NCBI GenBank assembly: GCA_024233215.1
Contig: JACKPW010000001.1
Span: 91,734-155,733, forward strand
Direction of reading: 5' to 3'
Length of the DNA stretch: 64,000 bases
From: Verrucomicrobiales bacterium
Lineage (GTDB): Bacteria > Verrucomicrobiota > Verrucomicrobiia > Limisphaerales > J093
The position numbers and the translations under genes were made by a program. The number at the start of each line of letters is the position of its first letter. Position 1 is the first letter of the stretch. The notes under the pieces are model-generated. The model made no database searches. It saw nothing but the letters and a program-made list of their open reading frames with translations, and was not told the origin of the DNA. This document shows, piece after piece, positions 19,134-36,700 of the stretch.

Positions 19134-19134
19134 G

Positions 19135-21024
19135 ATGACGACGATGATCAAACGACATCTTCACTTCCTGACCATTTCCGTTCTCGCCTCCGGCTGGCTG
19201 GTCGGCCGCGCGCAGCCTTACGAACCGAATTGGGATTCGCTCAAGCAACACCCGGACGCGCCCGAGTGGTTTCGCGACGCCAAGCTGGGCATCTACTTTC
19301 ATTGGGGCGTCTATTCGGTGCCCGCGTTTGCCAGCGAGTGGTATCCGCGGATGATGTTCCTCAAGGGCGACCGGGTGAACCTCCACCACATCGCCACTTA
19401 CGGGGACCCGGCGGAATACGGCTACGACAAGTTCGCGGAGCAGTGGAAGACGCCGAAGTTCGATGCCGCGGAATGGGCGGCGTTGTTCCAGCGGGCGGGG
19501 GCGCGCTTCGCCGGCCCGGTGGCGGAGCATCATGACGGCTTCTCCCTTTGGAACAGTGCCGTGACTCCCTGGAACGCCGTGAACAAGGGACCGCATCGGG
19601 ACATTGTCGGGGAACTCGGGGCGGCCATGCGCGCGCAGGGCCTGAAGTTCATCACCACCTTCCACCACGCCCGCAATCACTACGGCCACTTCGACGGGAT
19701 GGTGAAGGACTACCCGCAGGCGATGGCCGATCCCGAGGTGGCGATCCTCTACGGGCAGATGCCCACCCCCAAGTTCCACGAATTCTGGTTGGCCAAGCTC
19801 AAGGAGGTCATCGACCAGTATCAGCCCGACATCATGTGGTTCGACAGTTGGCTCGACCAGATTCCGGAGGACTATCGGCAGCGGTTCTGCGCCTATTACC
19901 TGAACTCAGCGGCCCAGTGGGGCAGGGAGGTCGTGATCGTCCGCAAACAAAATGACCTGCCCATCGAGTTCACCGTCAACGACCACGAGAAATCGCGGGA
20001 GAGCAAATCATCACCACGGGTTTGGATGACCGACGACACCATCAGCACGGGCAGTTGGTGTTACACCCAGGACCTCAAGATCAAACCGGCCTCGAAGGTG
20101 ATCCACGCCCTCATCGACACCGTGGCGAAGAACGGGGTCGTTCTGCTGAACATCTCCCCGATGGCCGATGGCACCATCCCGGATGATCAGCGCGGCGTGC
20201 TGGAGGAACTCGGCGACTGGCTGCGGGTGAACGGCGAGGGGATCTACGCGACGCGCCCGTGGAAGGTGTTCGGCGAAGGTCCGACCGTGGAGCCCGAAGG
20301 CGGCTTCTCGGCGAGTGGTAAATTCCTGCGACTGGAGTATTCGGCGGAGGACATCCGTTACACGCAGAGCAAGGACGGTCGCACGCTGTACGCGTTCACG
20401 CTGGGGTGGCCCGGGGGCGAGATCGTGTTTTCCGCCGTCAAGATCAGGTCGGCCGGGCCGATGGCCAGAGTTCGGATGTTGGGTGGTCAGGAAGACCTGA
20501 AGTATTCGTTGAACGATCAGGGAAGGCTGGTGGTTCATCTGCCGGACCTGCCGGAAGCGAATCGGCCGGCGCGCCATGCCTTTGGCTTCGAGTTGACCGG
20601 GTTTGACATCGAGGCGGCCCGGCCGATCCGGCACGTGCCGCCCGTGGTGCTGTCGGCTGATCAAGCCGTATTGGACGGCGCCGCGATCGCGGTTGAGCAG
20701 AAGAACGGCCGGCCGAACATTGGCTTCTGGGACAACCCGTCCGAGAGTGCCCACTGGCTCGTCAAGATCCCCGAACCCGGCACCTACGCGGTGGAGGGCG
20801 AGTTCGCGGCGACGTCCGGCAACAGCCGCCTGATCCTCCGTTGCGGCGATCAAGCGATCGCGTTCAAGGCGCCCAATACCGGGGACTTCGGGAGGACTCT
20901 GAAGGCCGGGGTGGGGGAACTCACCTTCGATCAAGCCGGGGTCCAGCATCTGGTTCTCGCCGCGAATCCAGCCGGCTGGCGCGCCGTGAACGTCTGGCAA
21001 CTCCAGTTGACTTTCCGGCCCTGA
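19135..21024 (+). CDS. alpha-L-fucosidase, GH29, with C-terminal carbohydrate-binding-like domain
   Basis: In-frame ATG 19135 (MTTMIKRHLHFLTISVLASGWLVGRA, signal). GH29 signatures GIYFHWGVYSVPAF, AEHHDGFSLW, IMWFDSW. Start overlaps/abuts the previous stop. Confidence 0.85.
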   Translation: MTTMIKRHLHFLTISVLASGWLVGRAQPYEPNWDSLKQHPDAPEWFRDAKLGIYFHWGVYSVPAFASEWYPRMMFLKGDRVNLHHIATYGDPAEYGYDKFAEQWKTPKFDAAEWAALFQRAGARFAGPVAEHHDGFSLWNSAVTPWNAVNKGPHRDIVGELGAAMRAQGLKFITTFHHARNHYGHFDGMVKDYPQAMADPEVAILYGQMPTPKFHEFWLAKLKEVIDQYQPDIMWFDSWLDQIPEDYRQRFCAYYLNSAAQWGREVVIVRKQNDLPIEFTVNDHEKSRESKSSPRVWMTDDTISTGSWCYTQDLKIKPASKVIHALIDTVAKNGVVLLNISPMADGTIPDDQRGVLEELGDWLRVNGEGIYATRPWKVFGEGPTVEPEGGFSASGKFLRLEYSAEDIRYTQSKDGRTLYAFTLGWPGGEIVFSAVKIRSAGPMARVRMLGGQEDLKYSLNDQGRLVVHLPDLPEANRPARHAFGFELTGFDIEAARPIRHVPPVVLSADQAVLDGAAIAVEQKNGRPNIGFWDNPSESAHWLVKIPEPGTYAVEGEFAATSGNSRLILRCGDQAIAFKAPNTGDFGRTLKAGVGELTFDQAGVQHLVLAANPAGWRAVNVWQLQLTFRP

Positions 21025-21043
21025 ACCGGACCTTACGCCCGCA

Positions 21044-22780
21044 ATGAAACGCTTACTGTCCCGTCTCGTTGGTACCTGTCTGGCCGCCGGACTTCTTCAA
21101 GGTGCGGCCCGCCCGAATGTCATTCTCGTGATGAGTGATGACCAGGGCTATGGCGACGTGGCGTGTCTTGGCAACACGATGATCCACACGCCAAACCTGG
21201 ACCGGTTACACGGGCAAAGCGTGCGGCTGACGAACTTCCACGTGGACCCGACCTGTTCGCCGACGCGATCCGCGTTGATGACGGGGCATTACTCCACGCG
21301 TGCCGGAGTGTGGCACACCATTGCCGGCCGTTCGCTGCTCTACGCCGATGAAGTGACGATGGCCGACGTCTTTGCCGCGGCGGGCTATGCGACCGGCGTC
21401 TTCGGCAAGTGGCACCTGGGTGACAACTATCCGATGCGCCCGCAGGACCGGGGTTTTCAGGAAGTCCTGGTTCTGGGCGGGGGCGGGATCGGACAGACCC
21501 CGGATTACTGGGGTAACGACTACTTCGACGACACGTATTGGCACAACGGCCGGTTGGAGAAGGAAATGGGTTATTGCACGGACGTGTTCTTCGATCATGC
21601 GCTGAAGTTCATCGACAACCGCCGGGACCGTCCGTTCTTTCTCTACCTGCCCACCAACGTCGCCCATGGGCCGTTCAACGTCGCAGATAGCTACAGCAAG
21701 CCCTATCGCGACCGGGGCGTTCCCGCTACCATGGCGAACTTCTACGGCATGATCGACAACCTCGACGAGAACGTGGGGCGGTTGTTGACGCATCTTGAAC
21801 AAGTCGGTTTGGCGGAGAACACCATCCTCATCTTCATGACCGACAACGGCACCGCCGCGGGGGTGGCCAATCCGAACCGGCAGCAAACGGCCGGGGGCAA
21901 CGCCCCAACGTGGACCGGGTTCAACGCGGGAATGCGCGGTCAGAAGGGATCCCAATACGAAGGCGGCCACCGGGTGCCGTGTTTCTGGCGCTGGCCGGCG
22001 GGTGGGATTGGGGGAGGCAAGGACGTGGGGCGGTTGGCGGCCCATTTCGATCTGTTGCCGACGCTGATCGAGTTGTGCGGGCTGAGCAAACCGCCGGGCG
22101 TGCACTTCGATGGCCGCAGCCTGGCGCCGTTGCTCAAGGGGCAGGAAGCGGGCTGGCCGGACCGAACGCTATTCGTCAGCGTCCAGCGCCAGGAGCTCCC
22201 GCCGAAATGGGTTCGCAGCGCCGCGATGACGGATCGCTGGCGGCTGGTCAACGGGGAAGAGCTTTACGACCTGCCGGCCGATCCCGGTCAGCAGGCGGAT
22301 GTCGCCGCGAAGCATCCCGAGGTCGTGGCCTCTCTGCGCGCTGCCTACGAGGATTGGTGGTCAGACATGCAGCCGGCGATGGCGCGCTACGCAAGAATCG
22401 TGGTGGGTGCTCCGGAGGCAAACCCCACGAGCCTGACCTGCCACGACTGGCATTCGGACCAGGTGCCCTGGAACCAGGGCGCGATCCGGTCGGCTCCGTG
22501 GGCGAATGGCTGGTGGGCGATCGAGGTCGCCCGGCCGGGAACGTACGAGTTCACGCTGCGGCAACAACCGGCGGAAGCCGCGTTTCCCATCCAGGCCACG
22601 CAGGCGCGGGTCAGGGTGGGGGAAGCGGAGACCGCTGCGAGCGTGCCTGCGGGCGCAACCAGCGTGACTCTGACCCTCGACCTGCAGCCCGGTTCCGCGC
22701 GTCTCGAAACGTCGTTCACGGATGAAGAGGCCGGCAAATCGCGCGGCGCCTTCTATATCGATATCAACCGCAAGGACTAA
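21044..22780 (+). CDS. S1-family sulfatase
   Basis: Signal peptide. PNVILVMSDDQGYGDV. VDPTCSPTRSALMTGHY (CxPxR). Confidence 0.9.
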   Translation: MKRLLSRLVGTCLAAGLLQGAARPNVILVMSDDQGYGDVACLGNTMIHTPNLDRLHGQSVRLTNFHVDPTCSPTRSALMTGHYSTRAGVWHTIAGRSLLYADEVTMADVFAAAGYATGVFGKWHLGDNYPMRPQDRGFQEVLVLGGGGIGQTPDYWGNDYFDDTYWHNGRLEKEMGYCTDVFFDHALKFIDNRRDRPFFLYLPTNVAHGPFNVADSYSKPYRDRGVPATMANFYGMIDNLDENVGRLLTHLEQVGLAENTILIFMTDNGTAAGVANPNRQQTAGGNAPTWTGFNAGMRGQKGSQYEGGHRVPCFWRWPAGGIGGGKDVGRLAAHFDLLPTLIELCGLSKPPGVHFDGRSLAPLLKGQEAGWPDRTLFVSVQRQELPPKWVRSAAMTDRWRLVNGEELYDLPADPGQQADVAAKHPEVVASLRAAYEDWWSDMQPAMARYARIVVGAPEANPTSLTCHDWHSDQVPWNQGAIRSAPWANGWWAIEVARPGTYEFTLRQQPAEAAFPIQATQARVRVGEAETAASVPAGATSVTLTLDLQPGSARLETSFTDEEAGKSRGAFYIDINRKD

Positions 22781-22800
22781 CTCACATCCTTACAGGGGAG

Positions 22801-22955
22801 GGAACCACGAAATCCACCAATTGCACGAAAGCAGCGGGAAGCTGCGGTCCGCGTCATGGTCTGCGGAATCACCGTTCGGTGATCGGGGCTGAGCCACGAG
22901 ACCATCGGCAGCGACTCGCGTTTCCTTTCGTGTAATTCGTGTGTTTCGTGGTTCC
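22801..22955. repeat. intergenic palindromic element, copy C
   Basis: Left GGAACCACGAAATCCACCAATTGCACGAAAG (22801-22831). Right CTTTCGTGTAATTCGTGTGTTTCGTGGTTCC (22925-22955), an imperfect reverse complement. Directly after the sulfatase stop. Confidence 0.7.
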
Positions 22956-23111
22956 ATTGAATCGATGCCTCGAAGATTGTCCGAAAACTCCCAGAACCAC
23001 GTAGCCGACGTGAGGAGGCTGATTCACACCGCTCAGACCACGGGTGGTCCATGGTCTTGAGCCTCCTCACGTCAGCAGCCACGGTTTCTTAAACTCCCTC
23101 TCGAAACCATC

Positions 23112-24635
23112 ATGCGAATTCCAGCACTTCTCTTCTCACTCTGCGGCGTTCTGACCCTGGGTGCTTTGGCTGCCGATCGACCGAACCTCCTCTTCATCGT
23201 CGTCGACGACCAATCGCCGTTCGACCTGAGAGTCTACGATCCGAACTCCGCCTTGCAGACCCCCACCTTGGACCGGTTGGCCGCGGAGGGCATGGTCTTT
23301 GACGGGGCCTACCACATGGGGTCGTTCAGTGGCGCTGTTTGCACGCCGTCCCGGCACATGATCATGAGCGGGCGCACGGTGTGGCACCTGCCGATCGGCC
23401 CCACCCGTGCGGAGCATTGTCCGCCCAATCTCGAAACGAACACGTTGGCCGCCGTCTTCAACCGGGCCGGCTACGCCACCATGCGCACCTGCAAGAAGGG
23501 GAACTCGTACCAGGCCGCCAACCAGCAGTTCACCGTGCGACATGACGCGGACAAGCGAGGGGGGACGGACGAGAGCGGCAGTGCCTGGCACGCCGAGCAG
23601 GTGTTAAACTACCTCAATGACCGCGAGGCCGGGGGGGACAAGACGCCGTTCCTGATCTACTTCGGGTTCTCCCATCCGCATGACACTCGAGACGGCAAAC
23701 CGGAGCTGCTGGCGAAATATGGCGCCGTGAATCATCGCGACCGCGACTCGTTCCCGCCGGCGAATCCGAAGCAGCCGAAACTTCCCCCCAACTACCTCCC
23801 GGCGCATCCGTTTCATCACGGCCATCCCGGCCTGCGCGACGAGGTCAACGTCAGCGGCGTGTGGCGAAACCGCGACGAGCAGACCATCCGCAACGAACTG
23901 GGGCGGGAGTTTGCCTGCAGCGAGAACATCGATATTCAGATCGCACGGGTGCTGGGCAAACTGAAGGCGATGGGGGAGTTGGAAAACACCTACATCTTCT
24001 ACACGGCCGACCATGGGATTGCGATTGGCCGACACGGCTTGCAGGGCAAGCAGAACCTCTATCAGCACACCTGGCGGGTTCCTTTCATTGCCTGGGGGCC
24101 GGGCATCAAGGCCGGTTCGCGTGTCCCGGGGAACATCTACCTGCTCGACACCCTGGCCACACTTTGCGATCTCGCCGGCATCCGGGCTCCGGACACCAAC
24201 GAGGGACTGAGCTTCAAGCCGGTGCTCTTTGGGCGACAGGAGACCGTGCGCGATGTGCTTTACGGCGTCTACAACGGCGGCACCAAACCCGGGATGCGAT
24301 GCGTGAAACAGGGCGACTGGAAACTCATCAAGTACGACGTGCTCGACGGCAAGGTGAGACAGACGCAGTTGTTCAATCTCGCGGAGAACCCCAACGAACT
24401 GCTGCTGCAACATCAGGATCCGAACGTCATCCGCTTGACCGGTATCACGCCGACTCTCGGGCAGGTGAACCTCGCCCGGGACCCTCGCTACGCGGACAAA
24501 CTCGCCGAGATGGAGGCCCTGTTGCTCGCCGAGATGCGGCGCGTGGACGATCCCTACCGCCTCTGGGATCAGCCGGATGACGGCTTGATTTCGCCCGAAC
24601 AGCAGCAGGACCAGGGACCCAGGGCGTCGCAGTAA
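23112..24635 (+). CDS. S1-family sulfatase
   Basis: Signal peptide. PNLLFIVVDDQSPFD. GAVCTPSRHMIMSGRT (CxPxR). Confidence 0.9.
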   Translation: MRIPALLFSLCGVLTLGALAADRPNLLFIVVDDQSPFDLRVYDPNSALQTPTLDRLAAEGMVFDGAYHMGSFSGAVCTPSRHMIMSGRTVWHLPIGPTRAEHCPPNLETNTLAAVFNRAGYATMRTCKKGNSYQAANQQFTVRHDADKRGGTDESGSAWHAEQVLNYLNDREAGGDKTPFLIYFGFSHPHDTRDGKPELLAKYGAVNHRDRDSFPPANPKQPKLPPNYLPAHPFHHGHPGLRDEVNVSGVWRNRDEQTIRNELGREFACSENIDIQIARVLGKLKAMGELENTYIFYTADHGIAIGRHGLQGKQNLYQHTWRVPFIAWGPGIKAGSRVPGNIYLLDTLATLCDLAGIRAPDTNEGLSFKPVLFGRQETVRDVLYGVYNGGTKPGMRCVKQGDWKLIKYDVLDGKVRQTQLFNLAENPNELLLQHQDPNVIRLTGITPTLGQVNLARDPRYADKLAEMEALLLAEMRRVDDPYRLWDQPDDGLISPEQQQDQGPRASQ

Positions 24636-24685
24636 CAAGCCGGGGTTGGGATTCCACCGACATCGCTGATTACATTTGTCAAGTC

Positions 24686-26047
24686 ATGCGAATGCCCCTC
24701 CCTCTCTTCAGGCTGAACCGTGGTGCCGGCTCTCCCTGTGGGGTGCCGGCTGGAAACTCAGCGCGACAAGGTCTCAACAGCCCACGAGGGCGAGGCGCAC
24801 ACCTGGTCCGGGGGGTGCTCCTGGCAACCGTTGCGTTGCTGCCGGTCACGGGGCAGGCAGCCGACGAAGGCGGCTTTCCCTACATCCTGCCGATGTCCAA
24901 GCCCGCCCGCCCGCTGAGTGCGGCGATGGAGCGGCTTTACGACGACTATTCCGCCCCGACTCCGGAATCGAACGAACTCTACTCCACCTTCAAATTCACG
25001 CCCTTGGAAGGGCTCGACTACCACGATGGCGACGGGACCATCTCCCGCCGCGACCCCTCCAAGGTCATTCGTGCCAACGGCAGGTATTATGTCTGGTACA
25101 CGCATCGCCAGACATCAACGCCGCCGCGTGGAGCTGAACTCGGCACGGACACCGTGCCGTCCACCGATTGGGACCTGGCGGAAATCTGGTACGCCACCAG
25201 CGAGGACGGATTCCACTGGGAGGAGCAGGGGGTGGCGGTTCCTCGCCCGCCCAAGCCCCATCCGGGTTGGCGTTCCGTTTCGACCACCGACATCCTGATC
25301 TGGAAGGGAAAGTACTACCTGTACTACCAGGGCTTCCTGGAAATGTCGGGCCGGCGGGGCGATGACTGTCCGGTGGCGGTATCCGTGGCGGATTCGCCCG
25401 ACGGACCCTGGGAGGCGATGAACCGGATCGTGATCCCCAACGGTGCGCCGGGGGAGTGGGATCAGCACTCCATCCACGATCCGTATCCGCTCGTGTACCA
25501 GGGGCGCATCTACCTCTATTACAAGTCGGACTTCAACAATGCGTCGCCCCACGTGCGGGGGCACGGGTTGGCAATTGCGGACGATCCGCTCGGCCCGTTC
25601 ACGAAACACCCGCTGAACCCGATCATGAACTCGGGCCACGAGACCACGTTGTTCCCGTTCCGGCAGGGGATTGCCGCCTTCGCGATCCACAACGGGCTTG
25701 AGCATAACACCATACAATACGCCCCCGACGGCGTGAACTTCCGGATCGCCGCCGTTTCCAGCCTGATGCCCGTGGCGGCCGGCCCCTATGTGCCCGACGC
25801 GTTCACTGACACCAAGGACGGCCGCGGCATCACCTGGGGCCTCTGCCACATCACCGCCGTCGGCCCCCCGGACAAGCGCTACAGCATCCTGGCCCGGTTC
25901 GACTGCGACCTGAGCCGCGACTGGGACGATCCCCGGATGAAGCAGACCGACCTCTTCCTCAAACCGGAGGAGTACTTCTCCCAGGGCCTCTGGCGCAACC
26001 AACGCGAACGCATCGAACGTGCGAATCGCGAAGCCCTTGGCGAATAG
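24686..26047 (+). CDS. five-bladed beta-propeller glycoside hydrolase (GH43/GH117-like)
   Basis: RRDPSKVIRANGRYYVWYT (typical GH43-type DP motif). Repeated blade motifs WYATSEDGFHWEE, KGKYYLYYQG, GRIYLYYKSD. Start uncertain. Confidence 0.6.
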   Translation: MRMPLPLFRLNRGAGSPCGVPAGNSARQGLNSPRGRGAHLVRGVLLATVALLPVTGQAADEGGFPYILPMSKPARPLSAAMERLYDDYSAPTPESNELYSTFKFTPLEGLDYHDGDGTISRRDPSKVIRANGRYYVWYTHRQTSTPPRGAELGTDTVPSTDWDLAEIWYATSEDGFHWEEQGVAVPRPPKPHPGWRSVSTTDILIWKGKYYLYYQGFLEMSGRRGDDCPVAVSVADSPDGPWEAMNRIVIPNGAPGEWDQHSIHDPYPLVYQGRIYLYYKSDFNNASPHVRGHGLAIADDPLGPFTKHPLNPIMNSGHETTLFPFRQGIAAFAIHNGLEHNTIQYAPDGVNFRIAAVSSLMPVAAGPYVPDAFTDTKDGRGITWGLCHITAVGPPDKRYSILARFDCDLSRDWDDPRMKQTDLFLKPEEYFSQGLWRNQRERIERANREALGE

Positions 26048-26300
26048 TCGCAATGCGAAGGGTTACGAGGCGTTCCGCCGGGTGCGTCGCTTGGAGCACC
26101 CCGGGGGAGTTGGTGATCGTAGCGACACCCGAATACGTTATCGTCCGCAAGCTTGAGTACCACCGTCAGGGGGGATCCGGGAAGCACCTGCGGGATCTCC
26201 GAGCGATGATGGCCGTGTCCCGATCACAGTTGGACCGGGCGGAGATTCACCGGCGCGGTTTCGATAAGGAATGGCGCTCGACGATCGGGTGACCCTTCCA

Positions 26301-27647
26301 TCAGCCAACGCTCCACGGTTCCCGGAGGAGACGTTCCAAACGACGGTTCGCCTCCTCACTGTTGGCAAAGCGCTCTTTCCCGGGGGCCCACTGGAGTTTC
26401 TCGCCGGTCTCAATGGCGATCAAGCCGAGTTGACACAGGCTGTTGGTGCGATGGCCGGTCTCCGCGGGGATCAGGGTCGGCCGGCCCTTTGCGATGCCGT
26501 CGATGAAATCCAGTTTCTCATTCACTTGCCGTGACGTGAAACCATCCGGTTCGAGCGGAGCCTGGGTGATGTCCGGATGGCTGGCCGTAACTCCCTTCCA
26601 CCACTCCGCTTCCACCCAGCCGGCCGTGCCCTCGAACCGGATGAATGGCCGACCCGCCATGCGGTAGTGCAGTCGGATGCCGTCGGCGTAGGCATAGTCG
26701 ACTTCAAACGCACTCAAGACGCCGGACAAGCCGCTCGCGGGATGGAAGGTCCCTTTGCCTTCCACCTGAATCGGCCCGGTGCGTTCGGTCCCCAGTGTCC
26801 ACTGGACGATGTCGAGCAGGTGCGTCCCCCAGTTGCAGATCATGCCGTCGCAGTAATCGCGGATGAGCATCCAGCCGGGACGCGCGCCGTGGTTCTTGGG
26901 GGTATGCACCCGTTTCTCAGTGTAGGGAGCCTTCGGTGCGGGCCCCAGCCACATCGGGTAGTCGAGTTCGTCCGGAACCGGTGTGGGGGCTTGCACAGGG
27001 ACCGGAGCCTGCTCCTCGGGCACGCCGGCGATGACAGTCTGGACTTGGCCGATTCTCCCCGTGCGGACGATCTGTCGCAGTTGCCGGAAATCCTTCGAAC
27101 TGCGCACCTCGGTGTCCGTCCGGAAGACGCAGCGGTTCGCTTGAACGGCGTCGGCGATGGCACGGCCTTGCCGGATCGACAACGAAATGGGCTTTTCCAA
27201 CGCGACGTGCTTGCCCGCTTTCGCGGCGGCGACGGCCATCACGGCATGCCAATGATCGGGGCTTGAGATCATGACCGCGTCCACATCACTTCGAGCCAGC
27301 ACATCGCGGAAGTCCCCGGTGGTCAGGCAGCCGCGGTAGCCGCTCGGCCGGTTCGCGGAGTAGTGGTTCTCAACCCGCTGCAGCCCTTGCTGGAGGCGCC
27401 ACTGGTCCACGTCGCAGAGCGCCACGACCTGCGTCTCCGGTGAGGCCAGAAACGGCAGCAGGTTCGCATGGTACGCCTGTCGGCCCAGGCCAAGGAAGGC
27501 CACCCCGATCCGGCTGTTCGGGGCGTTTTGCCCCAGAATGCCCGGCGGGGCGAAGGCCGGGGCGCTGACCAGGGCGGTCGCGGTCAGCAGGGATTTCTTC
27601 AGGAACTGACGGCGGTTGGCTTGCGGGAGTTGGGGGCTCGTGGACAT
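26301..27647 (-). CDS. Gfo/Idh/MocA-family NAD(P)-dependent oxidoreductase with twin-arginine signal (GH109-like architecture)
   Basis: RRQFLKKSLLTATALVSAPAFA (TAT signal). Rossmann IGVAFLGLGRQA. EKP motif (HVALEKPISL). Confidence 0.8.
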   Translation of the reverse strand: MSTSPQLPQANRRQFLKKSLLTATALVSAPAFAPPGILGQNAPNSRIGVAFLGLGRQAYHANLLPFLASPETQVVALCDVDQWRLQQGLQRVENHYSANRPSGYRGCLTTGDFRDVLARSDVDAVMISSPDHWHAVMAVAAAKAGKHVALEKPISLSIRQGRAIADAVQANRCVFRTDTEVRSSKDFRQLRQIVRTGRIGQVQTVIAGVPEEQAPVPVQAPTPVPDELDYPMWLGPAPKAPYTEKRVHTPKNHGARPGWMLIRDYCDGMICNWGTHLLDIVQWTLGTERTGPIQVEGKGTFHPASGLSGVLSAFEVDYAYADGIRLHYRMAGRPFIRFEGTAGWVEAEWWKGVTASHPDITQAPLEPDGFTSRQVNEKLDFIDGIAKGRPTLIPAETGHRTNSLCQLGLIAIETGEKLQWAPGKERFANSEEANRRLERLLREPWSVG

Positions 27648-27724
27648 GGCAATTCTCGGGAGAACCTAACGAGGACCCGGCGGCGACACCACTGCTTTTT
27701 GAGGTGTATCCGTGCAGTGAAGGA

Positions 27725-27927
27725 AACCACGAATGAACCTGGAAACCGCAGATGAACGGGGATGAACGCAGATAAGTCCCTCGACGTGAGCCCCCCACGT
27801 CCGCCGGATGTCTTCACCCATTGGGTGTGACGCGAAAATCGCGCAAGTCCTTGGGTATCTGCGTCTATCTGTGTCGATCTGCGGTTCAACTGCTTTTTCT
27901 AGGATGAACACGAATCCACACGAAAGG
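27725..27927. repeat. intergenic palindromic element, copy D (divergent/composite variant with GATGAAC-type sub-repeats)
   Basis: AACCACGAATGAACC…CCGCAGATGAACGGGGATGAACGCAGATA (left) versus TATCTGCGTCTATCTGTGTCGATCTGCGG (right, ~22/29 reverse-complement match). Then CTGCTTTTT…GATGAACACGAATCCACACGAAAGG. The direct repeat ACTGCTTTTT occurs at 27691 and 27888. Confidence 0.55.
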
Positions 27928-27976
27928 CGGGTCGTTTCCCCGTGCCAAGGAGTGGGAGCTGCGTCCGGGAGGCGGA

Positions 27977-28411
27977 TTACCCGTCCTCGGATCTGAGCGT
28001 GGAAAACGGGTTCAGCAGCCGGGCGCCGGTGTTGCGGTATCCCGATTCGTCACGGCTGACCACGATGAGATCGTGAACCATCGCCGTCGCAGCGATCAGA
28101 GCGTTCAGGGTCGGCACGGGTTGCCGCAGCCCCATCCGGCCCCATTGGTTGGCCACCCGTTTGTCCACGCCGAGGATGCGATCCTCGAACTGCGTGCTCA
28201 GGCGCTGCAGCCATCGTTCCAACGTCGTGGCTTGGCGGGCGTCACGCTGCTTGATGCGTTCGATGCCCTGACGGATTTCCCCCAGCACCAGCACGCTCAC
28301 GAACAGGCCGTCAGGGTCCGCCGATTCGATCCAAGTCCGTACTCCCGGGTTGCAGCGGGCCGCTTTTCGAAGTTCGCTCAGGATGTTGGTGTCAAGCAGA
28401 TGGCCGTTCAT
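27977..28411 (-). CDS. vapC: PIN-domain toxin (VapC/FitB-like)
   Basis: MNGHLLDTNILSELRK… (conserved D at the PIN N-terminus). Further acidic residues. 144 aa. Confidence 0.85.
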   Translation of the reverse strand: MNGHLLDTNILSELRKAARCNPGVRTWIESADPDGLFVSVLVLGEIRQGIERIKQRDARQATTLERWLQRLSTQFEDRILGVDKRVANQWGRMGLRQPVPTLNALIAATAMVHDLIVVSRDESGYRNTGARLLNPFSTLRSEDG

Positions 28412-28644
28412 AACTCGACCGGGCGGGGAATCTGGGGGGCGCGCTGGAAATCAGCATCTTCGCCCACATCAGGCATCGAGAGCAGGAAGTCCCTGAAGGA
28501 TTGCCTTCCGCCGCCCGGTCCCAGCAACGCCTCACGCAGGATGCGCCGATGCTCTTCCTCCATCGAGACCCCGTGCTGACCGGCAAGTTGTTTCAACTTC
28601 TTCACCACGTTCTCATCGAGTTTTCTGACCAGGAGTTGCGGCAT
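28408..28644 (-). CDS. vapB: ribbon-helix-helix antitoxin (FitA/VapB-like)
   Basis: 78 aa. MPQLLVRKLDENVVKKLKQLAGQHGVSMEEEHRRILREAL is a typical FitA/Arc-type N-terminus. 4-nt overlap with the toxin start. Confidence 0.75.
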   Translation of the reverse strand: MPQLLVRKLDENVVKKLKQLAGQHGVSMEEEHRRILREALLGPGGGRQSFRDFLLSMPDVGEDADFQRAPQIPRPVEL

Positions 28645-28860
28645 GGTTCTTCAATCGTTCGATCTGCTATCAATGATAGCGCTCGGATCGCATTGTCCAA
28701 GGATTTGTTTCCGGCAATTCGCATGTTGGCGTGGAGCGCGGGCTGGCAGCCGGGACCTGGCGCGACAGTGCCTTGAGCCGGTACCATGTGGGCGCTGTGC
28801 GTGACGGAGTCTCCGGGCACGAGGATTGTGGAGTCGTCATCGGGATGGTATTCAGAGCTC

Positions 28861-30612
28861 ATGCACTCGCGATTTCTGCAAGGCACACTCGCCCTCATCG
28901 CCGGCGCGATGATGGGAGGGACCTCCTCGGTCGGGGCCGACGCCGTCCGGTTCGATCCCGTGATTCGGGACATCGAGGGATGGACCGTGGAGGTGGATCC
29001 GGCATTGCTCGAGGGGGAACATGCGGAGGAGGGGCGACGCGCACTCACGATGCTGGCGAACCACCTTCAGCGGATCAGCATCCTCGTGCCGGAGGAAGCG
29101 CTTGCCCGCCTCAAACAGATCGGGATTTGGATCGAGCGCAGCCATCCCCGTCTGAAGGCGATGCAGTATCATCCCAGCAAGGAGTGGCTGGTGGAGCATG
29201 GACACGATCCGCGCCTTGCCAGGAAGGTGCACATCACCCACGCGCGGGAGTTGCTGTCGCGTGAGCAGATGCTGAAGCATCCGGCCGTGATTCTCCATGA
29301 GCTGGCCCACGCCTATCACGATCAGGTCCTGGGCTTTGACAATCCGGAGATTCTCGCGGCCTACGAGCGGGCCAAGGCCGCCGGCAGCTACGAGAACGTT
29401 CTGCTCTACACCGGAGAGCGGGTGCGGCATTACGGCCTGACCGATCACAAGGAGTATTTCGCGGAGGGCACGGAGGCCTACTTCTATCGAAACGACTTCT
29501 ACCCCTTCGTTCGAGCGGAACTCAAGGAACACGATGCGGCGCTACACGATCTGCTCAAGCAGATCTGGGAGGATGAGAGTCTTCAACAGCCGTTGTTCGT
29601 CAGCGGTCAGGACGGTTATCACACCTACCGCATTCCGGCGCTGGCGGTGACCACGAACCGGACGCTGCTCGCCTTTTGCGAAGGGCGGCAGGGCGGTCGG
29701 GGCGACAGTGGAAACATCGACCTGCTGGTGAAGCGTTCCACTGACGGAGGTCGGACCTGGAGCCCGCACCAGGTGATCTGGGACGACGCCGGCAACACCT
29801 GTGGCAATCCGTCGCCGGTAGTGGACGAGTCGACCGGGACGATCTGGCTCCTCATGACGTGGAATCGTGGCGACGATCACGAAAGCCAGATCATTGCGCA
29901 AACGAGCCGGGACACGCGCCGCGTTTTCGTAACGCGATCCGTTGATGATGGGCGGACCTGGGCTGCGCCCGAAGAGATCACCGGATCGGCGAAACTTCCG
30001 AACTGGACCTGGTATGCCACCGGGCCGGGCGCGGGAATCCAACTGCGGAACAGCGACGCGCGCGGTCGGTTGGTGATTCCCTGCGATCACATCGAGGCGG
30101 GGACGAAGCGCTACTTCTCGCACGTCATCTATTCCGACGACCACGGTCGGACCTGGAAACTGGGGGGCACCACGCCGCAGGACCAGGTCAACGAGTGCGA
30201 GGTGGTCGAACTCAAGGACGGGCGCCTCCTGCTCAACATGCGCAATTACGATCGCTCGAAGCATCAACGTCAGGTTGCGTTCAGTGAGGACGGCGGGCTG
30301 ACTTGGAAGAGTCAGCGTTTCGATGTTGCGCTGGTCGAACCGATCTGTCAGGCGAGCATCCGCCGTTGTGGCGACGTCATTCTCTTTTCCAACCCGGCCA
30401 GCGAGAAGAGCCGCGTGAACCTGACCGTGCGGCTGAGCGACGACGAAGGCCTGACCTGGCAGGCGGCACGCGCCCTGTGGGCCGGACCGGCCGCGTACTC
30501 CGACCTGGCCGATCTCGGCGGTGGTCGGGCTGCCTGTCTCTACGAACGCGGCGACACCCAACCGTACGAGACCATCACCTTCGCGAGCTTCGGTCTCGGT
30601 TGGCTGCGGTGA
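28861..30612 (+). CDS. secreted two-domain protein: N-terminal HExxH zincin-like domain fused to GH33 sialidase/BNR-repeat beta-propeller
   Basis: In-frame ATG 28861 with signal peptide. HELAHAYH plus downstream E ([10 protein letters not shown]). Then YRIPAL (sialidase RIP motif) and five Asp-box/BNR repeats ([40 protein letters not shown]). Confidence 0.75.
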
Positions 30613-30913
30613 ACCCCACGCAACGGTGGATTCGCGGAAGCCCTGAAGATGGAGCGGGGACGGCTCGTCCCCGGCATGGGGCTTGGCGGAGCGGGGGGCA
30701 ACGGGCTGTAGGCTCTCGGACTCAGGGATCCGATCCGGGGCTCTCCCCGGCTCCACGACTCCCCGCATTTTGTATTGGTGCGGTTCTTCGCCATTTGGTA
30801 ACAGGAGGGCGACAAGTTATCAGCCCTTCGGCCGCCCCGGGAGCCCGTCGCTCCGATCCGGAAGGTTGGGGAGGGCTGGAACCCGTTGGGCATCGAAGCA
30901 CAGGCACAGGCTT

Positions 30914-33088
30914 ATGTTGGAAATCTTCCTTTACGTCGTCGGAGGCATTGTGGCGGTCCTGTTCGTCTCCGTCTTCCTGGTCTGCATTCGCAAGATCCAG
31001 CCCGGTCGGGCCGGCGTGAAGACCGGTTGGGGCGGCATCAAGGTGTCCTTCGACTACATGATCCGCCTGCCCCTGCTGCAGACCTATCACATCGTCGACA
31101 TCTCGGTGAAGAAACTCGAGATCTCGCGCAAGGGAAAGGACGGTCTGGTCTGCAAGGACAACATCCGCGCCGACATCACGGTCGCCTTCTACATCCGGGT
31201 GGAGGCCACGGAGGAGAGCGTCCGGAAGGTCGCCCAGATGCTGACGCCCGAACGGGTGTCCGACATGGACAAGCTGCGCGAGTTGTTCGAGGCCAAGTTC
31301 TCGGAGGCGCTCAAGACCGCGGGCAAACAGATGGAGTTCCACGAGTTGTTCACGGAGCGCATCAAGTTCCGCGACCGGATCCAGGACACCATTGGCAAGG
31401 ATCTCGACGGCTTCCTGTTGCAGGACGTCGCCATCGATTATCTGGAGCAGTCCCCGCTCGAGGAGCATGATCCCAGCAACGTGCTCGATGCCGAGGGCAT
31501 CAAGAAGATCACGCAGATCACGCAGCGCGAACGGGTCATTGCCAACGAACACACCCAGCGCGCCGCCGTCCAGATCGAGAAGGAGAACGCCGACGCCGAG
31601 ATCGCCAAGCGCGAGCAAAAGCGCCGGAACGAGGAGGACTCCGCCAAGCAGCAGCGCGCCATCACCGAGGTTCAGGCCAACGAGGAGGCCGAGGCGCGCA
31701 AGGTGATTGAGGTCCGTCGCATGGAGGTGGAGGGCAAGCGCATCGAGACCGACGAATCCATCCGCCTCCGTACCGAGGACATGAACCGCGCCGTCCAGGA
31801 ACGCGAATACACCGTTCGCAAGGAGAAGGAGCGGTTGGAGCAGGAGGCGGTCCAGGAAGGGGAGGAGGCCCGCGTCCGTCGCGAACGCACCGTCTCACTG
31901 GCGGACATGGACAAGGAGGTCAAGGTGGCCGAGGCCGCGGTCGAGGTGGAACGGAAGCGCGCGATTGTGGTGGCCGAGCAGAAGGCCGTGGTCCAGCAGG
32001 AGGAGGAGAAGCTGAACATCGAGGCGGAGATGACGGCGAACCGCGTTCGCGAGGTCACGTTGATCGAGGCCGACATGAACGCCAAGAAGGCCCAGGTCGA
32101 GAAGGTCGTGGCCGCCGAGGCGCAGAAGGATGCGGACCGGCACCTGGCCGAGGCCGAAAAGATCAAGGCGGTCGTGGCCGCCGAGGCCGGTCGGGAAGCC
32201 GCGCTACGCGAATCCGAGCGCATCCAGACCCTGGCCGATGCGGAGGCGAAGGCCTCGGACAAGAAGCGCCACGCGATGGAACAGGAAGCCGAGGGGTTGG
32301 CCGCGCAGGAGGCGGCACCGGGTTTGGCGGAGGCCCGCGTGATCACCGCCAAGGCGGGCGCCAAGAAGGCGGACGCGGAAGGCGTGCGCGAACTGGGACT
32401 GGCGGAGGCCGACGTCATCAAGGCGAAGGGCACTTCGACGGCCGAAATCACGGAGCAGCAGGCCGAGGCCGAGGCCGAGGGGGTGAAGGACAAGGAACTG
32501 GCGACCGCTGCCGGCATCGAGGCCAAGGGCCTGGCCGAAGCCAGGGGCATCGAGGAAAAGGCGAAGGCGATGAAGTTGCTCCAGGCCGCCAGCCAGCAGC
32601 ACGAGGAGTTCCGCCTCAAGCTGGCGAAGGAACGCGACGTGGATCTGGCCGCGCTCAACGTGCAACGGGAGATCGCCAAGGCGCATTCCACCGTGGTGGG
32701 CGAGGCCCTCAAGCACGCCAACATCGACATCGTCGGCGGCGAGAACGACTTCTTCGAGAAGATCGTCCGCTCGGTCGGCAACGGGAAATCCGTGGACCGG
32801 CTGCTCGAAAACAGCCGGGCGCTGCGCGACGTCAAGAACACGTTCTTCACCGGCGACCGGGAACAGCTCAAGTCGCAGTTGCAGCAGTGGGCCCGGGATT
32901 TCAACGTCGGTTCCGAGGACATCAAGAACCTCACGGTGGCGGCGTTGCTGGCGAAGTTCATGGCATCGACCGACGACAACGTCTTGAAGTCGCTGCTGGA
33001 GTCTGCCCGGGGAATGGTGCAGGAGGCCGGGTTGGCGGATCTCAAGGCTTCCGTCCTGTTGGAGGACAAGAAACCGGCGAAGGCCTGA
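30914..33088 (+). CDS. flotillin-like SPFH/band-7 membrane protein with long Glu/Ala/Lys-rich coiled-coil (~724 aa)
   Basis: In-frame ATG 30914 (MLEIFLYVVGGIVAVLFVSVFLV, N-terminal TM). SPFH core (GWGGIKVSFDYMIRLPLLQTYHIVDISVKKLEISRKGKDGLVCKDNIRADITVAFYIRV). ~450 aa of EAxK-type heptad-rich flotillin-domain sequence. Confidence 0.85.
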   Translation: MLEIFLYVVGGIVAVLFVSVFLVCIRKIQPGRAGVKTGWGGIKVSFDYMIRLPLLQTYHIVDISVKKLEISRKGKDGLVCKDNIRADITVAFYIRVEATEESVRKVAQMLTPERVSDMDKLRELFEAKFSEALKTAGKQMEFHELFTERIKFRDRIQDTIGKDLDGFLLQDVAIDYLEQSPLEEHDPSNVLDAEGIKKITQITQRERVIANEHTQRAAVQIEKENADAEIAKREQKRRNEEDSAKQQRAITEVQANEEAEARKVIEVRRMEVEGKRIETDESIRLRTEDMNRAVQEREYTVRKEKERLEQEAVQEGEEARVRRERTVSLADMDKEVKVAEAAVEVERKRAIVVAEQKAVVQQEEEKLNIEAEMTANRVREVTLIEADMNAKKAQVEKVVAAEAQKDADRHLAEAEKIKAVVAAEAGREAALRESERIQTLADAEAKASDKKRHAMEQEAEGLAAQEAAPGLAEARVITAKAGAKKADAEGVRELGLAEADVIKAKGTSTAEITEQQAEAEAEGVKDKELATAAGIEAKGLAEARGIEEKAKAMKLLQAASQQHEEFRLKLAKERDVDLAALNVQREIAKAHSTVVGEALKHANIDIVGGENDFFEKIVRSVGNGKSVDRLLENSRALRDVKNTFFTGDREQLKSQLQQWARDFNVGSEDIKNLTVAALLAKFMASTDDNVLKSLLESARGMVQEAGLADLKASVLLEDKKPAKA

Positions 33089-33745
33089 TTGCTTGTGGTT
33101 GTGCCCACCCAGGCGGGATCAGTGGTTCGGTGGCTGAAGTCCCGGCTTCGGCACGGGGGGCCAGGGAGGTTCGGCGCAACCTTCGGAGCCCTGTTGGGTT
33201 TGGCCGTTGTCGTGGTGGGGTGTTCGGGATCGGGTGGCGAGGACGCCGCCGACATGTCGAAGACCACTGAGGCGACTGAAAGCGACCTTACGACCAAGGT
33301 TTTCGAGCGGGACACGGACGGGGATGGCAAGCCTGACTTTCGCATGGAGACCTTCCTCCGAGGGGGGCGAAAGGTCTTGGTGCTCACCAGCAAGCCCGAT
33401 CAAAAGGGGGGTATGATCGTTCGGACGAGGTCCTACTTGGTGGGTGGAAACAGCGTCTTCACGGAGGCGGACGAGGATGGGGACGGCGTCTTCGAGAGGT
33501 TGGTTGCCTGGCTTCCACAGACCAATGTTGTTGAGGTGTTTGTTCGCCGGCCGGACGGGACAGTGCGTCCGGCCGGAACGAGGGTGGTTGAGCTGTATGA
33601 GGAGCAACTGTCCGCGATGGACGACTTCTTTGAGGAGGTGTTCGAAAGAGGCGCCGATCTTGTTGACTCGGAGGACCTCGGGGAGTTGTTGCACAAGGCG
33701 CAGAAGCGGATTCAAGACGCCGAGGCTGAGAAGAGGCGACAGTAG
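33089..33745 (+). CDS. small lipoprotein (lipobox VVGC), acidic, function unknown
   Basis: Starts 1 nt after the flotillin stop (TTG/GTG start candidates 33089-33150). LGLAVVVVGCSGSGGED lipobox. Asp-rich calcium-binding-like DTDGDGKPD, DEDGDGVFE. Confidence 0.5.
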   Translation: MLVVVPTQAGSVVRWLKSRLRHGGPGRFGATFGALLGLAVVVVGCSGSGGEDAADMSKTTEATESDLTTKVFERDTDGDGKPDFRMETFLRGGRKVLVLTSKPDQKGGMIVRTRSYLVGGNSVFTEADEDGDGVFERLVAWLPQTNVVEVFVRRPDGTVRPAGTRVVELYEEQLSAMDDFFEEVFERGADLVDSEDLGELLHKAQKRIQDAEAEKRRQ

Positions 33746-33770
33746 GTAGTCACCGGAGTCCACGTAAGTT

Positions 33771-36700
33771 ATGGCCGAAGTCCCTGGACAACCGAATCTC
33801 CCCGAGCAGGAAACCTCCGTCGCTCCCGTCCCCGGAAAGACGGCGACTCAAGCGGCACCGGCTCTCGGCGACGCGACCTACGAGATCATCCGGCAACGGT
33901 TGGACACCCACGCGGCCACGTTGCGCGAACGGCTGAGTCGGTTGGATGCGCGGCGGCAGGAGGTCTTTGGCGCCATCGAATACAAGCTGCTGCAGGCCGA
34001 TCGTATCGTCACGGCCAACAACTGTGTGCCCCGCGACATGGTGCCGCTGGCGGGCGGGCGCTTCCTGTTTGGTTTCAACGTGCGTTTCGGGCTCAAACAG
34101 GAGATCGATTTGGCCGACGTGTTCGCGATCTACCACCGCGACGAAACCACCGGCGCCTGGAAGGAGGCCGGGTTGGACCCGCTGCAGGACGCCGCGTTCC
34201 TCCGCGATTTCAAGCGTCTGTACAACGTCTATGCGAAGACTGTTTTCCGGAAGTTCTCGGTGATCGACGGTCAGCTTTACCTGGTGTTCGGCGTGGGCGC
34301 CGGCGTGGAAGACATCGCCGTCTTCAAGTGGGCTTACAACGACGGCGAACCGCGTTATGTCGATGGTCGGGCGGAGGCGGACTTTCGGCGGGTCGGGTTT
34401 CCGGCGGCGCACGCCTTTCGGTGGCAGATTCCGGATCGCGAGTCCTTCCGTTACGGCGACCACCCGCATCTCTCGATCGAGGACCGGGTCTTCGTGGAGT
34501 GCATCGGGGGCGACCTGACGATCAAGGTGGAGGACAACACGGCGAGCGGTGAGGGCATTTACGAGGAACCGGTCGAGGACCGATACCAGAAGGTGGATGA
34601 CGCGGAAGTGGCCTACGCGGCGTTGGACCATCTGATCCTGCTGAAGATTCGTCCCTACAAGGAAACGGTCACCCGCTACTTCATCTTCAACGAGAAGCTG
34701 CGGCAGGTGGTGCGGGTGGATTCAATCGGCGAATCCTGCGTGCGGTTGCCGGAGGATCAAGGGTTGGTGTTCCCGGACGGCTACTACCTGTCGACGGGTG
34801 AACTGAAACGGTTCGAAGGGCGAACCGTTGGGATGCTCATCGAGCGCGTGATCCCGGCACCGAACGGCGAGGACACGTTGTTCGTGTTCTACAACCGGAC
34901 GAGCGGCGAATACGTGTTGATGCCCTACCGGTTGATCCAACAACGGATCGAGGAGCGGCTGACCTGCCAGGGCTTTTCCCTGTTTCCCAACGGTCATTTG
35001 CTCTCCTTTCGCGCGGAACCGGAGGCACAGAAACACCATCTCATCCAGCTTCGCCAGACCCCGTTCCACCAAGCCGGTCACGAGCCGCCCGGCCAGAAGG
35101 AGGCGTTCCTTTACCAAGTGGGCAACAAGGACGTGGTGCGCGCCCTTTCGGATGGCACCGAAATCCTGACCCTCCTGCGCAAGCCCGATCCTTACGCCGC
35201 GCTCTACACCGACCTCGTCAAACGCTGTGAAGCGGTGCTCGATTCCTACCCGTGGCTCGCGTCGCCGGATGGGTTCGGAGTCGATGAGGCCCTGCGGGCG
35301 GTCCGGGGCGCGGCGGACAAGGCGGTTGCCGAATTCGACAAGGTGCGGCGACTTCGGGCGGAAGCGGCGCGGCAGGTGAAGGAAATCCGCACGCGTTGTC
35401 AGGACCGGTTTGACCTGATCCGGCGCGCCGATTTCAAGAGCCTCAACGACTTTGTCCAGCACCTGACCGCACTCCGGCAGTTGCGGGGCGAGTTGATCAC
35501 GCTGCGCGAGGTGCGGTACATCGATGTCGCGGCGCTTGACGCCGTCGAGGAGACGGTCACGAAACAGGGCGAACACCTCTCGGCGGCCTGCGTGAAGTTC
35601 CTGTTGCGTCCGGAAGCGCTCGAACCGTATCGGAAGGAGGCGGCCTCGCAGTTGGCGGCGGTCGATTCGGTGACCAAGGTCGCCGAGGGACGCGACCTCG
35701 AGAAGACCGTGGCGAAGACCGGTGGCGAACTCGAGATGCTCATCGAAATCGTCAACGGGTTGAAGATCGAGGATGCCACCGAAACGACGCGGATCATCGA
35801 CAGCATCACGGCGGTCTTTGCGACGTTGAACCAGGTTCGGGCGGCGCTGAAGCAGCGACTCAAGAGCCTGGCGGCCGCCGAAGGCGCGGCCCAGTTCGAT
35901 GCCCAGATGAAGCTGCTGGGGCAGTCGGCGGCCAGTTACCTCGACCTGTGCGACACCCCCGCCCGTTGCGACGAGTACCTCAACCGGATCTCCGTCCAGA
36001 TCGAGGAACTTGAAGGTGCATTCGCGGATTTCGAGGAATACACCGTCCAGCTGGCCGAACGGCGCACCGAGCTTTACGAGGCGTTCGAGCAACGCAAAGT
36101 CGCCCTCGTCGAGCAACGCAACAAACGGGCCAACGCCCTCATGACCGCCGCCGAGCGGGTGTTGAAGGTCATTCGCAACCGGTTGGCCGGCTTCCAGACG
36201 CTCGACGCGATCAACGCCTACATGGCGTCGGACCTGATGATCGCCCGGGTCCGGGAGACCATCGACCAGCTGCTCGCTCTTGAGGATTCGGTCAAGGCGG
36301 ACGATTTGCAGGGCCGGCTGAAGAGCGCCCAGCAGGAGGCGGTCCGGCAGTTGAAGGATCGCCAGGAGTTGTTCGTCGGCGGGCAAGACGTCATCAAGCT
36401 CGGGCGCCACCATTTCAACCGGAACACCCAGCCCCTCGACCTCACCATCGTCCAGCGCGACGGCGTCCAGCACCTGCACCTGACGAGCACCAAGTATTTC
36501 GAAGCGATCAACGATCCCGGGTTCAATGCCACGTGGGCGGTCTGGGACCAGGAACTGGTTTCGGAAAACGCCGACGTCTATCGAGCGGAGTACCTCGCCT
36601 GGCAATTGCTGAAGCAAACCGATGGGAGCGCGGGCGGCCCGGCCGCAGCAGCCGGGGAGCCGTTTGGCACGAAGTCGGCGGAACCGCCGGACAGGCGCAC

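Follow-up and report, generated by a model that had tools for sequence, protein, structure and literature searches.

The window, by which we mean the whole 64,000-nucleotide stretch of DNA analyzed here, carries a gene whose predicted product joins a zincin domain to a sialidase in one exported polypeptide. From the N terminus, the protein consists of a signal peptide, an HExxH domain (aa 27 to 240), and a GH33 sialidase (aa 243 to 583). We lean towards the view that this is a real, lineage-specific bifunctional exoenzyme whose two domains plausibly share a sialylated glycoconjugate as their substrate. This reading would have the join exist in a living genome, both domains be active, the zincin be a peptidase, and the two domains share a substrate, each of which we infer from sequence. 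Both domains are of known kinds; what is new is their combination, which has been seen only once.

The coding sequence of the fusion spans 28861 to 30612 on the forward strand and encodes 583 aa plus a stop, an assignment that draws on the open reading frame, on domain scans, and on the start called in a related contig from another assembly (L001; GCA_020440125.1). A longer open frame of 608 aa leads to the same stop (28786 to 30612, forward strand). The ATG at 28861 is the better start because it yields a classical Sec signal peptide and is also the start called in L001. The hydrophobicity profile predicts a signal peptide of aa 1 to 26 (28861 to 28938, forward strand) with a hydrophobic core at aa 5 to 20, probable cleavage after VGA, and a mature part that starts with DAV. 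Signal peptides also open the stand-alone zincin homologues described below. The corresponding NCBI protein, MCP5519997.1, is 100% identical but is a 447-aa call that starts at the internal Met137. The window comes from a Verrucomicrobiales MAG and has a G+C content of 62 to 68%.

To judge from its sequence, the C-terminal half is an ordinary and complete GH33 sialidase in which six of six catalytic residues are kept. The exo-alpha-sialidase beta-propeller (aa 243 to 583; 29587 to 30609, forward strand) matches Pfam BNR_2 (PF13088; 2.6e-40, 139 bits against a cut-off of 31.4) and BNR_3 (PF13859; 7.3e-24, 85 bits against a cut-off of 27). The best solved relative is the Micromonospora viridifaciens sialidase (7.8e-49; 1w8n and 1eur at ~1e-48 over aa 242 to 582). 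Aligned to that enzyme, whose residue numbers equal the chain index plus 42, the window protein has an arginine triad at R257, R461, and R518 (R68, R276, and R342 in M. viridifaciens), a nucleophile pair at Y546 and E445 (Y370 and E260), and an acid/base at D282 (D92). An earlier note, made from the DNA letters alone, had described a sialidase RIP motif and five Asp-box repeats in this half, and both are borne out by motif scan. The YRIP motif lies at aa 256 to 259 (29626 to 29637, forward strand) and, by alignment, includes R257, the first arginine of the triad. Scanning for S-x-D-x-G-x-T/S-W located exactly five Asp-boxes, all on the forward strand: STDGGRTW at aa 293 (29737 to 29760), SVDDGRTW at aa 360 (29938 to 29961), SDDHGRTW at aa 425 (30133 to 30156), SEDGGLTW at aa 475 (30283 to 30306), and SDDEGLTW at aa 526 (30436 to 30459). 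Retaining exo-alpha-sialidase activity is predicted for this domain, and its substrate could be another nonulosonic acid. The closest relatives of the sialidase are stand-alone Verrucomicrobial proteins of 391 aa (73 to 74% identity) with signal peptides of their own, and no zincin neighbor was found beside them.

An LF/PPEP-like (M34-like) gluzincin domain makes up the N-terminal half (aa 27 to 240; 28939 to 29580, forward strand). The HELAHAYH sequence and downstream glutamate that the earlier note had placed behind a signal peptide are present as the zinc-binding and catalytic motif HELAH at aa 146 to 150 (H146, E147, and H150; 29296 to 29310, forward strand) and as EYFAE at aa 198 to 202. 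The latter closes a segment from Y191 to E202 (29431 to 29466, forward strand) that, by profile alignment to anthrax lethal factor (LF), contains the putative catalytic tyrosine and the glutamate that would be the third zinc ligand.

Homologues of this domain are numerous and strongly conserved. A word-indexed search returned more than 6,000 at an E value of 1e-3 or below, and an exhaustive HMMER scan resolved the family into 2,395 clusters at 50% identity. The top 120 homologues are 212 to 367 aa long, nearly all stand-alone and secreted, and share 74 to 81% identity; across Verrucomicrobiota and Planctomycetota, identity within the subfamily is 72 to 81%. The 80 zincin loci found in reference genomes belong overwhelmingly to these two phyla, and the cultured carriers include Rubritalea profundi SAORIC-165, Rhodopirellula europaea 6C, and Planctomycetaceae bacterium SH139. 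The HExxH motif, the tyrosine, and the glutamate are invariant in the homologues examined. HELAH and E202 are unchanged in all three family alignments (A1, A2, and A3), and the catalytic residues are invariant in the 49 single-domain relatives of alignment A3, which reach down to ~38% identity. In domain numbering, the invariant residues of the Y191-E202 segment in A3 are Y167, E174, F176, and E178. The H/E/H/E columns are also invariant in 64 multidomain relatives.

Against Pfam, the window protein falls below the gathering cut-offs of both ATLF (PF07737; 15.7 bits against 27.4) and M90 (PF06167; 12.8 bits against 26.2); the ATLF match is stronger in some relatives, with a best E value of 7.2e-14 among the 64. 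No NCBIfam model matched the N-terminal domain. Searched against the PDB, a narrow family profile (A1) had no match and the broader A3 profile matched LF only, weakly (E = 0.01), placing HELAHAYHD on HEFGHAVDD (HEFGH being LF residues 686 to 690) and the Y191-E202 segment on LF SYGRTNEAEFFAE. By this weak alignment, H146, E147, H150, Y191, and E202 would be equivalent to LF H686, E687, H690, Y728, and E735. No PPEP chain was matched by the family profiles at E values up to 10. An AlphaFold model of the zincin, built on 30 homologues (pLDDT 85, pTM 0.84), matched PPEP-3 (score 12.3), PPEP-2 (11.3), and anthrax lethal factor (10.4), followed by the putative Bacteroides zincin 4l7a (8.1) and MtfA (8.0). 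Foldseek gave the same set with a probability of ~1 and a TM score of ~0.5, and the modeled domain thus has the LF/PPEP three-dimensional fold.

The earlier note had named two findings that would speak against a peptidase relation, namely loss of HExxH in orthologues and a match of the domain to a known non-peptidase family. HExxH is conserved and the closest fold is that of peptidases (PPEP and LF), so both objections fail. We consider the zincin a probable peptidase on the basis of its residues and modeled fold. We describe the family as M34-like, since it belongs neither to M34 itself nor to the PPEPs as defined in the literature. It appears uncharacterized, having no Pfam or NCBIfam model and no description in the literature searched, where we found nothing relevant on LF-like zincins in PVC bacteria and no activity data for any family member.

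The domain is frequently built into larger proteins. In reference genomes, it occurs as a C-terminal module behind SASA (sialate-O-acetylesterase-type) esterases (L006, L008, L016, and L044 by Pfam; L022 and L037 by the GQSNMEG motif), behind a GH28 beta-helix (L049) or a methyltransferase (L066), and behind a second, different zincin (L007, L013, and others). In other representatives, it is N-terminal and is followed by a GH27 alpha-galactosidase with NPCBM, a GH95 fucosidase, SASA, alpha/beta-hydrolase esterases, gluconolactonase, or ThuA. A census of 64 multidomain representatives counted sulfatases (seven), SASA (four), and ThuA, DUF1080/3-keto-disaccharide hydrolase, and metallophosphoesterase (two each), with single cases of GH95, GH27, GH43, DPP-IV, PdxA, cyclophilin, and others. 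Zincin matches fall in two or three stretches in 21 of the 64 entries, consistent with tandem duplication. The genes next to stand-alone zincins are heterogeneous, the commonest being sulfatases (10 of 111) and glucuronoyl-esterase-like genes (5 of 111); the sulfatase count is weak evidence because sulfatases are very abundant in Planctomycetota and Verrucomicrobiota. Just 5' of the fusion gene, the window itself contains a GH29 fucosidase, two sulfatases, and a GH43-like gene. The repeated joining of this zincin family to sulfatases, carbohydrate esterases, and exo-glycosidases lends some weight to the idea of joint attack.

The specific pairing with a sialidase was found once. The earlier note had proposed asking whether the fusion is conserved, and the answer is negative: we found the join in no further protein, genome locus, or metagenome contig. 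No protein with both domains was found in 5.8 billion clusters; with the full-length query, the best match is NCBI's own 447-aa call of this gene and all the others cover the sialidase only, and with a 120-aa query centered on the junction, matches cover one half only. Neither a wobble-tolerant junction pattern nor a geometry-based pattern (PFVRAE...YRIPA...W-N), the latter validated on the window beforehand, had a match among the 241 million JGI metagenome records scanned. Other assemblies have no record of the exact 583-aa or 608-aa product. Among the 80 reference-genome loci there is no second fusion, and among the 64 multidomain representatives no sialidase partner. The Rosetta-stone expectation that stand-alone zincins should sit beside sialidases was rejected, as none of the 80 loci has one within ±10 kb. 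The flanking genes of the window are shared with none of these loci, and an attempt to rebuild the ancestral locus by synteny was unsuccessful. The literature searched contained nothing relevant on sialidase-metallopeptidase fusions.

Three sets of apparent relatives of the fusion were set aside. Sialidases of ~545 aa with 67 to 70% query coverage have an N-terminal region of ~200 aa that lacks both HExxH and any Pfam hit, and the extra coverage reflects alignment over-extension. Protein P0245 (86% identity, 376 aa) could be taken for a piece of this fusion, but it ends in a low-complexity read-through tail that matches no Pfam model. Matches to the junction query with 65 to 78% coverage are ordinary sialidases with signal peptides.

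With no second instance, and with a related contig that ends at the junction, the fusion rests on one assembly, and evolution gives no backing for a specific protease-sialidase partnership. The absence of sialidases near stand-alone homologues, together with their heterogeneous neighbors, means that there is no independent evidence for joint action of this zincin with a sialidase.

The join itself (IWEDES/LQQPLF; 29578 to 29592, forward strand), located from the domain ends of stand-alone relatives, has no linker and is the natural boundary of both modules. On the zincin side, the stand-alone proteins end 0 to 23 aa (mostly 4) past the last aligned residue in all 80 reference-genome homologues; for comparison, P0117 ends RIWENSE*, where the window has IWEDES. 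On the sialidase side, stand-alone enzymes read DQQPLFVSG after the signal peptide, and in other natural sialidase fusions the N-terminal module is attached just 5' of this P[IL]FVSG start. Past the join, the reading frame continues without a stop for 1,023 nt, and third-position G+C (GC3) is alike in the two halves (0.78 and 0.79).

L001, the only closely related contig, raises the question of whether the join was made in a cell or by an assembler. It is syntenic with positions 24518 to 29588 of the window at 96 to 99% identity, is identical to it over its final 113 nt, and breaks off at 29588, within the Q243 codon at the junction. A contig end at a point specified in advance is improbable by chance (we estimate ~0.5% for an end within ~10 nt of a given point in a ~5-kb contig), which suggests an assembly-graph branch at the join. 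Structural polymorphism, duplication of the sialidase, or a mis-join in the assembly of the window could each have given rise to it. If it were a mis-join, the window protein would be an assembly or strain chimera: the zincin would stop after IWEDES, the sialidase would lie elsewhere with its own signal peptide, and the contig path at 29580 to 29590 would connect two loci or two strain variants. The exact break in L001 fits such a chimera, as do the failure to find the fusion elsewhere and the fact that NCBI did not call the full-length gene. However, a random mis-join would have to be in frame and to meet both natural domain boundaries, one of which is the very start at which other sialidase fusions attach their modules, and the 64-kb window lacks any repeat or extra copy of the two halves that could mediate it. 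GC3 is uniform over the join, and the source contig of 904 kb (904,168 bp) belongs to a contiguous, not fragmentary, assembly. A branch in the sister sample is explained equally well by a real structural polymorphism in which fused alleles coexist with unfused ones, or by duplication of the sialidase. We therefore regard a chimera as unlikely and the fusion as quite probably real in a living genome.

If the fusion is real, a simple origin can be proposed. A complete, stand-alone gene for a secreted zincin, lacking only its stop codon, would have been joined in frame to a GH33 propeller lacking its own signal peptide, giving a lineage-specific gene fusion in which the zincin signal peptide exports both domains. 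In the exported protein, zinc would be bound by H146, H150, and E202, with E147 serving as general base and Y191 stabilizing the transition state, and the sialidase would act through the R257/R461/R518 triad, the Y546/E445 nucleophile pair, and the D282 acid/base. With the two domains rigidly abutted and no linker between them, the zincin may cut the peptide backbone of a glycoconjugate outside the cell while the tethered sialidase strips terminal sialic or other nonulosonic acids from the same substrate, much as related zincins may act when their tethered partner is a sulfatase, acetyl-esterase, fucosidase, or galactosidase. It is plausible that the two domains attack sialoglycoproteins jointly, and the mucin-type glycoprotein substrate suggested by the earlier note is conjecture.

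A real fusion could also be functionally incidental. [quoted passage not shown] The fusion is a singleton without a conserved gene pair, and the subfamily identity of 72 to 81% is easier to reconcile with a fixed target, possibly an endogenous one, than with diverse environmental glycoproteins. Among characterized proteins the PPEPs are the nearest relatives, and their targets are adhesins of the producing cell (PMC8610288). Some partners of the family have no connection with glycans (DPP-IV, cyclophilin, PdxA, and methyltransferase). Against this, sulfatases, carbohydrate esterases, and exo-glycosidases form the largest identifiable class of partners, in both orientations and in many lineages, a pattern not easily explained for a domain unconnected with the breakdown of glycoconjugates. 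An incidental fusion seems to us improbable, and we continue to favor an exoenzyme whose domains share a substrate.

The partners of the family invite a wider and more speculative proposal, which we offer tentatively and think rather doubtful. The ~220-aa LF/PPEP-like domain may represent a new and very abundant family of glycoconjugate-directed hydrolases of Planctomycetota and Verrucomicrobiota, either glycan-guided endopeptidases for sulfated or sialylated glycoproteins and proteoglycans or zincins acting on non-peptide bonds in glycans, that serve as plug-in modules beside de-capping enzymes (sulfatases, acetyl-esterases, fucosidases, galactosidases, and, in the window, a sialidase); the window fusion would then be a Rosetta-stone clue to the class of substrate. 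A separate reading has the domain keep a zincin fold without being a peptidase. It would then be a metal-dependent hydrolase of a non-peptide bond in complex glycans, for example where a substituent is attached through an amide or ester link, and a new carbohydrate-active module that follows or precedes de-capping enzymes, the sialidase among them. In favor of it, partners and frequent neighbors are largely carbohydrate sulfatases, esterases, and glycosidases, peptidase partners are rare (one DPP-IV/S9 fusion), the domain scores below the Pfam cut-offs of two peptidase families, ATLF and M90, and the weaker structural matches include zincin-like HExxH folds with non-peptidase chemistry (leukotriene A4 hydrolase and the HExxH oxygenase 8s5f). 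We consider this reading very unlikely.

Sialidases and zinc endopeptidases are well known, and one case of their fusion, from one MAG, is no more than a small curiosity. Of broader interest is a strongly conserved family of secreted LF/PPEP-like zincins with thousands of members and no Pfam model, carried by Planctomycetota and Verrucomicrobiota, which are specialists in the degradation of sulfated and complex glycans. If its members prove to be glycan-aware proteases, they would constitute a new enzyme class for the turnover of environmental glycoproteins and proteoglycans and a possible addition to the glycoprotease toolbox for glycoproteomics.

Among known systems, the closest in structure are PPEP-1/Zmp1, PPEP-2, and PPEP-3 (M34; PDB 5a0p, 6fpc, and 9g0j), with a structure-based identity to the window zincin of 14 to 20%. 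Bona fide PPEPs have been reported from Clostridiales and Bacillales only, are recognized by homology to PPEP-1 or PPEP-2 at E values of 1e-25 or below, and carry cell-wall anchor domains as their extra domains, with no glycosidase fusion reported (PMC8610288). The present family, in contrast, belongs to Verrucomicrobiota and Planctomycetota. The catalytic domain of LF (M34; PDB 1yqy and 2l0r) is part of a four-domain toxin that is delivered by protective antigen and acts inside cells, and its sequence match to the window zincin is marginal; LF Y728 and PPEP-1 Y178 are catalytic tyrosines, and Y191 of the window protein would correspond to LF Y728. MtfA (peptidase M90; PDB 3dl1), to which the window protein matches below the Pfam threshold, is a cytoplasmic regulator-associated aminopeptidase and is not secreted. 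The propeller of the window protein aligns end to end with NedA (1eur and 1w8n) and with bacterial GH33 sialidases (4bbw and 4fj6), sharing their Asp-boxes and RIP motif. In known bacterial sialidases, the accessory modules are of the lectin, CBM, or Ig-like kind; within the window's own sialidase clade, the extra modules are a second GH33 domain, an N-terminal module of ~200 aa without a Pfam hit, or GH16, and the window protein is the only one found there to combine a zincin domain with GH33. A parallel in concept is with the glycan-guided metalloproteases of mucins and O-glycoproteins, such as the M60-like BT4244, StcE (M66), and ZmpB/C (M26), which are secreted zincins with glycan-directed modules. 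These belong to other zincin families, and their partners are non-catalytic carbohydrate-binding modules, whereas the partner in the window protein is a catalytic glycosidase.

The NCBI gene model for the fusion locus (window 28861-30612), MCP5519997.1, is a 447-aa protein named "exo-alpha-sialidase" that begins at the internal Met137. The zincin domain is thereby split through its middle and the signal peptide is lost; the Met137 start is therefore probably mis-called.

Upstream of the fusion gene, window 19111-27647 is a glycan-utilisation cluster that comprises a GH29 alpha-L-fucosidase (at 19111), two sulfatases (at 21044 and 23112), and a GH43-like protein (at 24686). It also includes, on the minus strand at 26301, an oxidoreductase of the Gfo/Idh/MocA type that bears a Tat-like signal, RRQFLK. 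The 571-aa ORF at 17418 has no Pfam match. Directly 5′ of the fusion gene, and separating it from this cluster, we observed two genes on the minus strand, for a VapC-type PIN toxin (27977-28411) and a FitA-like RHH antitoxin (about 28408-28644). A stretch of approximately 165 bp (27739-27903) is missing from the sister contig L001, which is elsewhere 96-99% identical. It contains imperfect inverted arms of 31 nt (27744-27774 and 27856-27886) that are 77% complementary, and it occurs only once within the window. Possible identities for this stretch are a hairpin element and an insertion of the MITE-like kind. On the 3′ side of the fusion gene, window 30902-39317 encodes two proteins of 728 and 1,848 aa. 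The first is rich in Glu, Ala, and Lys, appears to be coiled coil, carries a hydrophobic segment at its N terminus, and has no Pfam match; the second carries DUF3686, DUF7902, and AAA ATPase domains.

The closest stand-alone sialidases, found in the loci L082 and L084, are directly preceded by a 165-aa ORF (7344-7841 and 7234-7731, respectively) that has no Pfam match in either locus. This pairing occurs in two unrelated contexts, and the ORF may be a dedicated partner.

Among zincin homologues, we observed additional architectures. In several Verrucomicrobiota, a second, distinct HExxH domain (…ILIHEFAHNIHLRG…HHEYFAEGVQSWFDNNRENDHDHNHVNTR…) is joined upstream of the zincin domain (L007, 4217-6055; L013, 8834-10642; also L011, L014, L018, and L071), for which Pfam gives at most a weak M91-like hint, in L013. 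In 21 representative clusters the zincin domain matches in two or three stretches, a pattern consistent with tandem copies.

Zincin homologues with 65-75% identity are present in four MAGs labelled as Klebsiella pneumoniae, Candidatus Nealsonbacteria, Crocinitomicaceae, and Luminiphilus (L009, L015, L050, and L066); because the remaining zincin family is PVC, bin contamination or mislabelling is likely. In addition, many stand-alone 250-aa zincin proteins (P0004, P0006, P0009, and others) carry the JGI name "dipeptidyl-peptidase-4", which is misleading for such proteins. One architecture among the multidomain relatives is a zincin fused to a DPP-IV/S9 domain, and the name was probably transferred from this rare fusion.
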